From an uncultured Alphaproteobacteria bacterium (GTDB lineage Bacteria; Pseudomonadota; Alphaproteobacteria; CAAHEQ01; UBA3637): a stretch of DNA of 64,000 nt. Under the pieces are notes generated by a model, which was not told the origin of the DNA, did no database searches, and saw only the letters and a list, made by a program, of their open reading frames with translations. Positions 27,106 through 29,971 of this stretch are shown in pieces. How positions within the stretch are numbered: position 1 is the stretch's first letter; every line of letters starts with the position of its first letter. Where the stretch lies: assembly GCA_934202735.1 (NCBI GenBank), contig CAKPYH010000004.1:73407-137406 (forward strand), written 5' to 3'. The position numbers were made by a program, and so were the translations under genes.

Positions 27106-27693
27106 TTATAAATCTTTTCCAAAATTATTAATAAAAGATTGCTTTTGTACAGTTGTTAAAGAAATTTTAGTTTTATTGGCAATCCATTCTATCAACTTTT
27201 GAGGAGTGTCTTGTGGGGTGAAAATAAAATCCGCAGAGTCCTGTAAAGCTTTTATGTCTTGTTCAGAAGGATGTTCAATTATTTCTCTTGCCTCTCTAGG
27301 AGATATTTTATCCCTTTGGCATATTCTAACAACTTGAGCATCTTTTGGGCAGTCACAAAATATTAGAATAGAATTTGGAAAAATGAATTTGAACTCTTTA
27401 TATACATCTTTATGTCGGAATCCATCTAATATAATACCATTTTTCCAACTAATAGATGATGCATTTTCCATTGTCCAGTGCATAAAACCCCGTTGACCAA
27501 GCTGAGTAATCAAATTTTGACCTAAATTTTGTAAATTGGATCGGGAGGGTATGATACTATTTCGCAGACAATACTCTCTTAAAACTCCTCCAAAAGAAAG
27601 AACTTGTAAACTATAATTTTGTGCTATAGCTTTTGTAACAGTTGTCTTCCCACTCGCAATAACTCCAGCTACACCAATATAAAGCTTTCTCAT
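27106..27693 (-). CDS. P-loop nucleoside/nucleotide kinase (NMP-kinase/uridine-kinase-like)
   Basis: Walker A IGVAGVIASGKTT; ILDGFRHKD resembles NMP-binding LLDGFPR. Confidence 0.6.
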   Translation of the reverse strand: MRKLYIGVAGVIASGKTTVTKAIAQNYSLQVLSFGGVLREYCLRNSIIPSRSNLQNLGQNLITQLGQRGFMHWTMENASSISWKNGIILDGFRHKDVYKEFKFIFPNSILIFCDCPKDAQVVRICQRDKISPREAREIIEHPSEQDIKALQDSADFIFTPQDTPQKLIEWIANKTKISLTTVQKQSFINNFGKDL

Positions 27694-29321
27694 TCTCTGC
27701 CTTTTTTTTGTGTTAATGAGTCAAAAAGAGAAGGTTGACAACTTTTTTCCACCGTATCTAAGATAAGCCAAGCTCTTCGATCATTTTTGGGAAATGGATA
27801 TGGTGTTTCATATTTCTTTACTCTAGCAATATGTATAAAACTAATATAACGTGAATCTTTTCTTTTTTCCCAGAAATAAGGATCATAATCAGCGCAAATT
27901 TCAGAACTATATTTCTTTAATTCTTCCATTTTTTCGGGGGATAAATCAGAAAAATATTCTACTTTCCCTGCAGTTATCTCCCCTACAACTAAACCTCCGG
28001 ATTTTTTTAATAAAATAATATCTCCTTCTTTGACTTTCTGAAATGGAGGACATTTTACTTTTGTAAACCTAGTTTCTATGGTTTTTTCGCCTTTTAAAAT
28101 TAAATCTAAAAAAGGTTGAATCAAGATTGCTAAATGTTGAGGTTTATGTTCGTTTTCATTCATAATTAATAGATCCTTTAATGTTTGATATACTATAGTA
28201 ATATCTCGTTTTATTTGATTTTTGTCAAGGTTCGAAAAATTCAATAATATTGTCTCAGAAATTTCTTCAAGATTTTTTTCCTTAGAAATTCCATCTAGAA
28301 TCAAACTCATTGTTTTCCACCCCTCAATTTTTAGACCTATATTAGTAGAGGTCCATAAATCTATATTCTTACGTATCGGTGAACGTCGACTCACAGAATA
28401 CAGAACAGCATCTTCAGGATTCTTTATCAAAATTTTTGGAGCTATATATTTACTGAGTTCTTCATTTTTCTTCTTGATTTTTACTTTTATTTTCCCTACT
28501 AAAAAATCTTCCCACTCTTCTTCAATTCGGCATTCTACATTTTCTGGTAACTTTTTACCATCATTAAGAAAAATAATCATATCTCCTTTTCTCCAATTTT
28601 TAGAAGAAATTTTGTTTTTCTCTAATGTTTCTTTTTCGAAGAAAGGTGTTTCATAAGATACGGCATCTGGTTCCAACTTGATAAGATTAAATCCTAAATT
28701 CATTGCTTTTATGATTACTTTTTTTCTTTCTTTCAGGGAAGATGGCCTTGTAAAAGCTGGGAAAAGAGCTATTCCTATACTCGAATAGTGACCAAAAGTT
28801 AATTGTTGAGCTCGTCTCATAAATAAATCATAATACTCTGGATACCAAGGAGGATCAAAAAAAACCATATCAGCAATGCCTATTAATTCATTGGGTATTT
28901 TATTTTCTGCGTTATAATGAATAGTTGAAATGTTTTTATTGAGTATATTTTTCTTTATATTTTCTAAAGTTGAGCCACTTTTATCCAGGATGATAATTTT
29001 TGTTTCTGGAAGAAAATAAGAAATATAAGAGGCAAGAATCGGAGCACCAAGAAAAGCCATTTTACGAGGTAATTCAAATGGATGATTATTTAATAAATTC
29101 CTGAAAGCTTTTTCCATTGAATCTGTGGAAAACCACCACTCATAGTCTAAACAATGTGGTAAATGTAAATTTTGTTTTAGCCTTAGTAACCCTATTTCTG
29201 CATTTTTCTTATTTTGTGTCCAATTCCTGTAAAGTTTTATTTTGCGAATTGAGTCTATCCCTTTAAGAGAAAAAGAGCCATTTTCTTGTATAATGAGTTT
29301 GTCTTTTACCATTTCTTCCAA
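27690..29321 (-). CDS. Amino-methyltransferase domain (DPPW, MT-A70-like) fused to C-terminal ASCH/PUA-like domain
   Basis: AFLGAPILA (motif I) .. IIILD .. VFFDPPWYPEYY (motif IV); C-terminus ILKGEKTIETRF = ASCH GxKxxExR. Confidence 0.55.
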   Translation of the reverse strand: MEEMVKDKLIIQENGSFSLKGIDSIRKIKLYRNWTQNKKNAEIGLLRLKQNLHLPHCLDYEWWFSTDSMEKAFRNLLNNHPFELPRKMAFLGAPILASYISYFLPETKIIILDKSGSTLENIKKNILNKNISTIHYNAENKIPNELIGIADMVFFDPPWYPEYYDLFMRRAQQLTFGHYSSIGIALFPAFTRPSSLKERKKVIIKAMNLGFNLIKLEPDAVSYETPFFEKETLEKNKISSKNWRKGDMIIFLNDGKKLPENVECRIEEEWEDFLVGKIKVKIKKKNEELSKYIAPKILIKNPEDAVLYSVSRRSPIRKNIDLWTSTNIGLKIEGWKTMSLILDGISKEKNLEEISETILLNFSNLDKNQIKRDITIVYQTLKDLLIMNENEHKPQHLAILIQPFLDLILKGEKTIETRFTKVKCPPFQKVKEGDIILLKKSGGLVVGEITAGKVEYFSDLSPEKMEELKKYSSEICADYDPYFWEKRKDSRYISFIHIARVKKYETPYPFPKNDRRAWLILDTVEKSCQPSLFDSLTQKKGRE

Positions 29322-29374
29322 AATACGCTTAAGCTCATCAGGAAAAACAGAATGACACCGTTTTGAAAGTTGAA

Positions 29375-29971
29375 TTAGATTCCTTTTTCGTTCTTCATAA
29401 AATTACGTTGATCGTCTGTCAATTTTGTCCAAAAGAAATCATTGCTCAGATTATCATCTGACCAAATAAAATGAGATTTATCCATCTCTAACGTTTTACG
29501 AGCTTCTAAAAACCATAATTGATATTCAGGAACCAGATCAGGTTGTCCTCCGCTTAAAACGATAACAGGTGGTCTATTTTCTTTTTTTGATAGATTTAGC
29601 AAATATTCAGCCGAAACCATTTCAGAATATTTTGGATCTCCTTTTCTTAAATTCTTATCAACAAAACAATACCAACAGTGAAAATTACAAACTGCTAATT
29701 GGAAGACTTCGACCTGTAAAGTGTCTGGCATTTCTTTTCCGAAAAACTCTCCAACAGGTTGATGTGGTAATGGATTTGGAAGCCAATCATTATTTTTGTG
29801 ATGATTAAAATGATGTATTCTTCCAAAATCATTGCAATTAGATCCCAGCGTTATATCTGTTGCTTGGACAGATTTTTCAAATTTTGTCATACGAAACAAT
29901 TTATTATCCAAATCAACTGCCACAGATCTTAATTCTTCATCTTTTGATTTATTTTTCATTAGAAGCTCCAT
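29375..29971 (-). CDS. Compact radical SAM enzyme (viperin/QueE-class-like)
   Basis: VCNFHCWYCF (CxxxCxxC) and VIVLSGGQPDL (GGEP-like) motifs; only ~110 aa follow the cluster. Confidence 0.5.
   Translation of the reverse strand: MELLMKNKSKDEELRSVAVDLDNKLFRMTKFEKSVQATDITLGSNCNDFGRIHHFNHHKNNDWLPNPLPHQPVGEFFGKEMPDTLQVEVFQLAVCNFHCWYCFVDKNLRKGDPKYSEMVSAEYLLNLSKKENRPPVIVLSGGQPDLVPEYQLWFLEARKTLEMDKSHFIWSDDNLSNDFFWTKLTDDQRNFMKNEKGI

Follow-up and report, generated by a model that had tools for sequence, protein, structure and literature searches.

A radical SAM, transferase, ASCH and kinase cassette, left as a deletion remnant in an alphaproteobacterial prophage, and its possible role in nucleotide-centred conflict

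A small AT-rich operon is described here from a 64,000 bp stretch of DNA (the window) of an uncultured gut alphaproteobacterium (assembly GCA_934202735.1, contig CAKPYH010000004.1). The operon is found on the minus strand between two tail genes of a prophage and encodes a radical S-adenosylmethionine (SAM) protein, a SAM-dependent transferase fused to an ASCH domain and a nucleoside monophosphate (NMP) kinase-like protein. In the window it is a recent, pseudogenised and decaying deletion remnant. Homologous loci in other genomes reveal the intact form, a cassette of four parts. We infer, at about even probability, that this cassette is a nucleotide-centred conflict system carried as mobile cargo, which is the best explanation. 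The interest lies in the family that is revealed and not in the window copy.

The original prediction, made from the letters of the window, held the combination of these proteins to be undescribed. This agrees with the databases: no description of the cassette was found in Pfam, NCBIfam, PADLOC, PHROGs or the full-text literature, most subscription papers being outside reach and absence there being no proof.

The cassette and its distribution

Homologous loci were compared with hidden Markov models (HMMs) of our own, run on the six-frame open reading frames of 80 fetched radical SAM loci; counts are from the 60 loci whose downstream sequence extends for 3.5 kb or more. The kinase is adjacent to the radical SAM gene in 58 of the 60 loci, the ASCH domain in 57/60 and the transferase in 53/60, with all three partners present together in 52/60. 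Co-occurrence of the partners elsewhere, which had been named as a check on the original prediction, is borne out by these numbers and also by gene fusions. Most loci encode the ASCH domain in a gene of its own. Four have it joined to the transferase (the window clade, L022 and L025), and another four to the kinase (L004, L007, L008 and L026). One fusion of a nucleotidyltransferase with the radical SAM protein was detected (P0405, 559 amino acids), with a GS...DxD motif in the N-terminal 230 amino acids. Gene order is fixed as radical SAM, transferase, ASCH and kinase, and the genes overlap with adjacent ones, which suggests translational coupling. The co-occurrence is very strong, and it points to a single functional module.

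Most genomes carry a longer form of the cassette, of which Spirosoma (S. arboris, L021, 6658-13279) and Pontibacter have eight-gene examples. Here a ∼480-amino-acid XRE-helix-turn-helix (HTH)/peptidase-like protein and the zinc-ribbon protein DUF4186 are found in 52/54 loci, DUF6932, which displays a GS-x9-DxD minimal nucleotidyltransferase motif (e.g. L021, 6658-7110), in 34/54, and a dCTP-deaminase (DCD)/dUTPase-like gene in 12/54. In the window clade, in the alphaproteobacterial metagenome-assembled genomes (MAGs) and in loci of candidate phyla radiation (CPR) bacteria, only the short form with four domains is seen. Homology between DUF4186 and the radical SAM protein was considered and rejected; apparent matches were produced by profile drift via an over-long open reading frame in L088, and a clean DUF4186 HMM matches no radical SAM protein of the family.

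Two further arrangements are of note. At the acidobacterial locus L072 (7353-9335), the XRE-HTH/peptidase-like regulator is fused to the kinase to form a 660-amino-acid protein, which suggests a regulatory link between both. In the metagenomic lineage of L007 (2007-5673) and L008, the ASCH::kinase cassette comes directly after a nucleoside phosphorylase-HAD phosphatase fusion, and a second radical SAM gene, of the SPASM type, is present nearby.

The radical SAM family has 1612 matches among 90%-identity clusters. With its profile, 516 matches at E <= 1e-3 and 150 at E <= 1e-30 were obtained among 1.84 billion 50%-identity representatives. When one genome per species was scanned, the protein was located in 227 species genomes, distributed in a patchy manner over many phyla and two archaeal groups. 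Hosts include alphaproteobacterial MAGs, CPR bacteria, Bacteroidota, Planctomycetota, Acidobacteriota, Chloroflexota and Cyanobacteria, as well as Paenibacillus, Enhygromyxa and thaumarchaeal and bathyarchaeal MAGs. Seven plasmids, six of them conjugative, carry the gene, and the names given there by PGAP are generic only. A tblastn search of 50,697 phage genomes with the radical SAM protein gave no match.

The surroundings of the cassette indicate that it is mobile or defence-island cargo, as judged from gene neighbourhoods. Individual loci are found beside integrases, type I restriction-modification systems, Mrr, Fic, DUF4238 and a diversity-generating retroelement. The 135 nearest neighbours include integrases, resolvases, prokaryotic Argonaute genes with Cas4-like or TIR partners, AriA, dGTPase and AbiD, and also Pycsar cyclase, mad2, HNH, PD-(D/E)XK and TIR genes.

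The broken copy in the window

The features of the window operon are listed below, all on the minus strand. Promoter-like and terminator-like sites are consensus matches only.

27045-30021, minus: whole AT-rich cargo insert (moron), defined by the GC profile and by junction alignment with the empty-slot phage L099; the slot is empty or holds other cargo in related phages
29986-30013, minus: promoter-like site (TTGAAA-16-TATTAT) followed by a GGAG ribosome-binding site, 5′ of the radical SAM start; consensus scan with 10/12 matches, weak in AT-rich DNA
29375-29971, minus: radical SAM open reading frame of 198 amino acids, a pseudogene; codons 1-197 of a 333-codon gene, then Ile and stop through a shifted frame
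29666-29689, minus: CNFHCWYC, the CxxxCxxC motif for the [4Fe-4S]/SAM cluster, radical SAM residues 95-102
29382-29389, minus: deletion junction with one remaining copy of GAAAAAGG; L001 9600-10066 (467 bp) is gone
27690-29321, minus: gene 2, 543 amino acids from a TTG start, N-terminally truncated; the intact form P0001 has 585 amino acids
28845-28856, minus: DPPW, motif IV of the transferase; DPPWY is invariant in the family
27759-28139, minus: ASCH domain with the octapeptide GEKTIETR (PF04266, 26.2 bits against a cut-off of 21.2)
27106-27693, minus: intact NMP-kinase-like P-loop kinase of 195 amino acids (AAA_17 44.2 bits, AAA_18 35.6 bits)
27064-27083, minus: terminator-like hairpin and T-run between the kinase stop and the tape-measure start, a consensus match

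Much of the arrangement first described was seen again. Three tightly packed genes run from 29971 to 27106 on the minus strand, with a stop-start overlap of gene 2 and the kinase gene (ATGA, 27690-27693), and the GC content of the 27.0-30.0 kb region is 0.28-0.35 compared with 0.45-0.50 in the flanking tail genes. The motifs of the three proteins (CNFHCWYC, GGQPDL, FLGAP, DPPW, GEKTIETR, Walker A and ILDGFRH) are all present and lie on invariant or near-invariant columns of their families. A megablast search with 26500-30700 against phage and E. coli collections produced no near-identical DNA. The host is not E. coli, and GenBank does not contain the phage.

The compact size of the radical SAM protein, on the other hand, proved to be a truncation, and the window operon, proposed as a working system, is not one. 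The closest homologue of the gene 2 protein, P0001, is 99% identical and comprises 585 amino acids, versus 543 in the window. In contig L001, whose intact operon spans 9010-12342, a radical SAM gene of 333 amino acids (P0080) overlaps a 585-amino-acid gene, after which the same 195-amino-acid kinase follows. The L001 and window sequences share 96-98% DNA identity across the operon, a single gap excepted. Exact anchoring places this gap between two copies of GAAAAAGG: 467 bp (L001 9600-10066) are gone from the window, and one copy is left.

The deletion affects two genes. The radical SAM reading frame stops two codons past residue 197 and loses the C-terminal 136 residues, including 19 of 47 family-invariant residues and the second half of the barrel, which is cut after strand 3-4. 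Gene 2 loses its start codon and its first 22 codons. There is no ATG, GTG or TTG upstream of the TTG at 29321, and this first usable start is 42 residues into the protein; therefore any product in the window is without 42 residues of the N-terminal winged helix. The radical SAM system of the window cannot be active because the barrel is cut in half. The cassette here is dead, with a halved radical SAM protein and a decapitated transferase gene, and the kinase alone is intact. A comparison of nonsynonymous and synonymous changes (pN/pS) between the window and L001 involves just 2-9 substitutions per class and shows no more than that there has been no further decay yet.

The radical SAM and transferase frames left by the deletion are 1 nt apart across an A5 run in GAAAAAGG (29381-29396, minus). 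As pure speculation, a ribosomal frameshift at this site would produce a fusion of radical SAM residues 1-196 with the transferase.

Other broken forms are present in close relatives. The 90%-identity cluster of the radical SAM protein contains 38 sequence variants. Intact forms comprise 333 or 329 amino acids, forms of 194 or 198 amino acids represent the 467-bp deletion, and there are fragments of 86-91 and of 171 or 216 amino acids. Contigs with broken forms outnumber those with intact ones among the cluster members listed. In the kinase cluster, almost every member has 195 amino acids.

A second knock-out allele is found in the same species in L091 and L092 (6001-7812), one of which is from a Hadza gut metagenome. 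It displays two lesions. One is a TTA-to-TGA nonsense change at codon 92 of the radical SAM gene, immediately 5′ of the CxxxCxxC motif. The other is a deletion of ∼925 bp between two copies of TGGAGAAAAG, which removes the Rossmann domain of the transferase and yields a radical SAM::ASCH chimera (P0002). L091 has one further break. The cassette was thus inactivated twice independently in one gut species, and such recurrence, with at least two knock-outs, is of some interest for the cost and turnover of such cargo.

Protein families and candidate functions

The first protein has the features of the radical SAM superfamily, i.e. the CxxxCxxC motif, a GGE/QP SAM motif and a partial TIM barrel. 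The Pfam model Radical_SAM (PF04055) scores 29.0 bits on the window protein, just under the cut-off of 29.5, and covers only profile positions 6-72 of 166. Residues C95, C99, C102 and G141-P144 are invariant in an alignment of 40 family sequences. An AlphaFold model (mean predicted local distance difference test score, pLDDT, 91.8) displays a (beta/alpha)6 core, whose nearest fold, according to the model, is that of pyruvate formate-lyase activase and not that of viperin. Hallmarks of the family are a conserved N-terminal extension of 85 residues (NCxxFGRIHHF) and an invariant WxDDNLS motif. A search of PDB sequences with the family profile gave nothing useful (best E 0.2).

The original assignment of this protein to the viperin/QueE class did not hold. 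With the curated models for viperin, NrdG, QueE and others, scores of 10-20 bits were obtained, where the cut-offs are 126-650. The viperin model NF038283 gives 21.1 bits with the window fragment and 19.6 bits with the intact 333-amino-acid protein (cut-off 180), and the QueE model TIGR03963 gives 12.8 bits (cut-off 260). For the NrdG/PflA-type models the values are 16.7-18 versus 131 (TIGR02495) and 12.6 versus 126 (TIGR02491). Sequence identity to the PflA activating enzyme, NrdG and QueE is ∼12%; the extra N-terminal domain and the WxDDNLS motif are particular to the cassette enzyme. The partners of those enzymes differ as well: no queuosine genes (QueC, QueD or FolE) were found in the 80 radical SAM loci, and no glycyl-radical enzyme is among the conserved neighbours. 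By these comparisons the enzyme, of ∼330 amino acids, belongs to a sharply delimited family of its own and is not a viperin.

Gene 2 encodes, in order, a BpsA-like winged HTH (wHTH) with a Rossmann SAM-dependent transferase domain that carries DPPWY, a middle beta/helical region, and the ASCH domain at the C-terminal end. The AlphaFold model of the transferase (pLDDT 87) has a BpsA-like fold of wHTH plus Rossmann domain, in which the DPPWY of the family aligns with the DPPE of BpsA. Residues D198, P199, P200, W201 and Y202 are invariant in the family alignment, as are the motifs WRxGD and VSRRSPxR..DLWTS, which come after the Rossmann fold. The view of this protein as a DPPW amino-transferase-type enzyme fused to an ASCH domain stands, while its likeness to MT-A70 does not. 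Motif I (FLGAP) precedes motif IV (DPPW), which is the unpermuted order, no Pfam match to MT-A70 (PF05063) is seen at E <= 1, and the fold is BpsA-like. Besides ASCH, Pfam yields weak amino-methyltransferase matches. PF01861 does not match the window protein at E <= 1, and some homologues display weak PF01861 matches; the PDB profile match has an E value of 0.0022.

The transferase is thus best described, from its modelled fold, as a predicted BpsA-like SAM-dependent N-alkyl/methyl-transferase. It differs from BpsA itself (N4-bis(aminopropyl)spermidine synthase, PF01861/DUF43) in several ways: identity is 14%, DPPE is replaced by DPPWY, ∼150 extra residues carry WRxGD and VSRRSPxR..DLWTS, an ASCH domain is fused in the window protein, and there are no polyamine genes near the cassette. 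A role of the transferase as a glycyl-radical partner was considered and rejected. An RVxG-type motif was sought, WRxGD alone is conserved, and there is no fold of a glycyl-radical enzyme.

The ASCH domain scores above the gathering threshold of PF04266 and has the GxKxxExR octapeptide. Within the family alignment, K16 and R21 of this octapeptide are invariant, and conservation of E19 is at least 90%. The family profile has no sequence match to any ASCH protein in PDB. ASCH enzymes of the GKTR and GKER types hydrolyse N4-acetylcytidine, and the octapeptide residues conserved here are reported to be catalytic (PMC6972931; bioRxiv 10.64898/2026.02.27.708502). The cassette ASCH shares the fold and octapeptide of the amidohydrolases YqfB and TthASCH and retains their catalytic Lys and Glu. 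Those proteins are stand-alone housekeeping enzymes acting on N4-acetylcytidine, whereas the cassette ASCH is a component of a cassette and is fused in some loci.

The third protein was predicted to be an NMP-kinase-like P-loop protein, and this description can be retained. AAA_17 is above its cut-off; PF00406, with 22.4 bits, is below its own of 26.8. Profile searches match the AdkA-like structures 3lw7 and 3h0k over the full length (E ∼1e-13), followed by AK1 and UMP/CMP kinase. Conserved residues (G10, G15, K16, R51, G91, R93, R123 and E144) represent the Walker A motif, the NMP site and the LID arginines. PADLOC matches are to VakA (3.8e-6) and to a dCTPase kinase region (4.6e-7). By sequence, the protein is classed as NMP-kinase-like.

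Antiviral nucleotide analogue synthesis and base modification are the two leading hypotheses for the function of the cassette. In the proposed pathway the four proteins would act jointly on a nucleotide, perhaps one of cytosine, that the kinase would supply or phosphorylate. The radical SAM enzyme would carry out a radical step, the transferase would alkylate an amino group, and the ASCH protein would bind or hydrolyse the modified base; the product might then interfere with invading phages or plasmids. A nucleotide-centred pathway is favoured because the accessory enzymes act on free nucleotides, i.e. the NMP kinase, the DCD/dUTPase-like protein, the nucleoside phosphorylase-HAD protein in L007 and the nucleotidyltransferases. 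A more specific proposal, which falls short of even probability and is offered tentatively, is that the intact cassette represents an unrecognised immune pathway, independent of viperin. It would make a new modified nucleotide (e.g. a cytidine nucleotide that is N4-alkylated or rearranged by radical chemistry) or put a reversible mark on nucleic acid, with ASCH as eraser or activator.

The cassette resembles the prokaryotic viperins (pVips) in that a radical SAM enzyme is found beside an NMP-kinase-like gene, in mobile or defence-island DNA, with a plausibly nucleotide-directed activity. The likeness would be one of functional analogy, with an evolutionarily separate origin. No radical SAM enzyme other than viperin is known so far to have an established part in antiviral nucleotide chemistry. 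If the proposal is correct, the cassette represents a second radical-SAM lineage of such chemistry, spread across bacteria and archaea, and ASCH domains and BpsA-like transferases gain a role beyond housekeeping.

Several points weigh against a nucleotide-centred conflict system. The nearest fold of the radical SAM enzyme acts on a protein glycine and not on a nucleotide, and none of the four proteins has a homologue of known function that would tie it to defence or to one particular substrate. Binding to DNA or RNA polymers would suit both ASCH and the wHTH just as well. About 7 of the 60 loci are without the transferase, so it is not obligatory, and the long form has four more genes (DUF6932 nucleotidyltransferase-like, XRE-HTH/peptidase-like, DUF4186 and DCD-like), so the short form may work differently. 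The association with defence islands is judged on nearest neighbours only, without a genome-wide background rate. PADLOC-DB v2 has no model for the transferase/ASCH protein or for the cassette, and gives only the weak partial matches to pVip, VakA and the dCTPase kinase. Repeated inactivation in the host of the window copy could also be plain neutral decay of a dying prophage.

The strongest rival, possible and given perhaps half the weight of the nucleotide-centred pathway, is a system that writes and erases marks on nucleic acids. The radical SAM enzyme and the DPPWY transferase would place a modification on DNA or tRNA, at an exocyclic amine such as cytosine N4 or adenine N6, ASCH would read or remove the modification, and the kinase would be regulatory or would phosphorylate the polymer. 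The outcome would be self-marking, anti-restriction or a shut-off of translation. A motif IV of the DPPW type typically marks enzymes whose targets for alkylation are exocyclic amino groups, and the transferase has an N-terminal wHTH and the Arg-rich invariant VSRRSPxR; however, a wHTH is found also in BpsA, where the substrate is a polyamine. Operons of the (PIN)-GNAT-EVE type with ASCH and AAA_17 were reportedly described by Iyer and co-workers in 2013. In these operons, located in mobile loci associated with restriction-modification, ASCH and an AAA_17-type P-loop protein accompany a predicted base 'writer' (Bell et al. 2020, PMC7641849), so that the two recur beside another candidate writer, GNAT-EVE. 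That writer is a GNAT acetyltransferase fused to EVE, in contrast to the radical SAM enzyme and BpsA-like transferase of the cassette; the ASCH and AAA_17-type pair is common to both by domain label. Additionally, ASCH/PUA-like domains act on polymers, where they bind modified bases or remove the modification (PMC7641849; bioRxiv 10.64898/2026.02.27.708502).

Other features fit a polymer mark less well. The conserved cassette is without a nuclease or other effector to exploit it, and is absent from sequenced phages, the usual home of DNA hypermodification pathways. The accessory enzymes (NMP kinase, DCD/dUTPase-like and nucleoside phosphorylase-HAD) act on free nucleotides. By inference, the nucleotide-centred pathway is ranked somewhat above the writer and eraser system.

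A protein-directed activity is unlikely. Here an activase-like radical SAM enzyme would radicalise or modify a partner protein and the DPPWY enzyme would be a protein Gln/Lys methyltransferase comparable to PrmC or EEF1AKMT1, with host or phage translation factors as targets. The activase-like fold is consistent with this, as is a weak Pfam match to PF10237, whose characterised members are protein-lysine methyltransferases. Yet none of the conserved partners is a glycyl-radical enzyme or has an RVxG-type motif, the NrdG and PflA-type models remain far under their cut-offs, and the nucleotide-metabolic accessory genes would be left unexplained.

About as unlikely is ordinary or secondary metabolism (of a branched polyamine, a 7-deazapurine or a nucleoside antibiotic), carried by chance as prophage cargo. 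The BpsA-like fold would suit it, but genes for polyamines, QueC/QueD or sugar/peptide tailoring are missing from the conserved neighbourhood. Among taxa the cassette is extremely scattered, with loci on plasmids and islands by integrases and defence genes, and an XRE/peptidase-type regulator with a minimal nucleotidyltransferase is typical of conflict systems.

Finally, an active compact viperin/QueE-class enzyme that makes chain-terminating nucleotide analogues with the kinase in this prophage is highly improbable: the adjacency of the two genes is conserved, the kinase does match VakA, and pVip models match weakly at radical SAM residues 92-164, the cluster-binding segment only (2.9e-5), but the intact protein falls far below the viperin and QueE cut-offs, the short length stems from the 467-bp deletion, and the window copy with half its barrel gone cannot be active.

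The prophage and its cargo slot

On one side of the insert is the gene for a tail assembly chaperone (phrog_313), which has a -1 frame extension at 30372-30022; on the other is that for a tape-measure protein (phrog_1716). Insertion exactly between these two genes, as had been claimed, is confirmed by alignment with the empty slot of L099, which locates the insert at the junction of the chaperone stop with the tape-measure ATG (27041). In IMG/VR phages with ∼90%-identical tail genes, the slot is empty (∼160 nt) in L099 and L103. In L093 (8727-9185) and relatives it contains a gene for a 152-amino-acid secreted repeat protein with tandem RSxTDSxGNT repeats, and in L101 (8935-11154) and L102 the repeat protein together with an XRE/HipA, HipBA-like pair (PF07804, 3e-50). 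These phages show the chaperone/tape-measure junction to be a cargo slot of genuinely variable content. The description as a moron slot is therefore kept, with a deviant GC content, promoter-like and terminator-like sites, and dispensable cargo that varies or is missing at the same position in relatives.

The tape-measure gene (24472-27056, minus) is split into open reading frames of 614 and 217 amino acids with ∼86 nt between them; in related phages the protein has 881 amino acids. Because of this split, the lambda-like prophage is probably defective.

Several other genes of the prophage are in AT-rich DNA or resemble defence genes. A SoFic protein (37988-39052, minus) in an AT-rich island has a Fic domain and a C-terminal HTH, with a full-length model match (PADLOC 1.2e-50). 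A 248-amino-acid reverse transcriptase (36951-37697, plus; RVT_1 1.1e-17) is in an island of 24-29% GC, and its top PADLOC matches are retron-type and CRISPR-associated reverse transcriptase models. There are two NUDIX hydrolase genes, at 35545-35991, minus (PADLOC candidate PDC-S07, 1.5e-14) and at 45496-46218, minus. The 210-amino-acid protein at 34721-35353 has no family match at all. A second AT-rich island among the tail genes carries a UvrD-type helicase of 845 amino acids (31737-34274, minus) with GajB-like PADLOC matches (1.6e-8). The entire segment 30341-34668 is missing from the relative L001.

The prophage is bordered by a tRNA-Lys gene (46519-46594). The right host flank (47-64 kb) encodes RNase J, BirA, Obg, DnaB, RNase PH and RsmI, and the Obg protein has 71-78% identity to proteins of Alphaproteobacteria and Pseudomonadota MAGs. 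Genes of the left flank include glyQ, glyS, another class II aminoacyl-tRNA synthetase-like gene and sugar-modifying genes. The flanks are asymmetric in composition, with a GC content of 0.33-0.35 on the left (1-14000) and 0.46-0.51 on the right (47000-64000), and both are joined to the prophage in independent assemblies.

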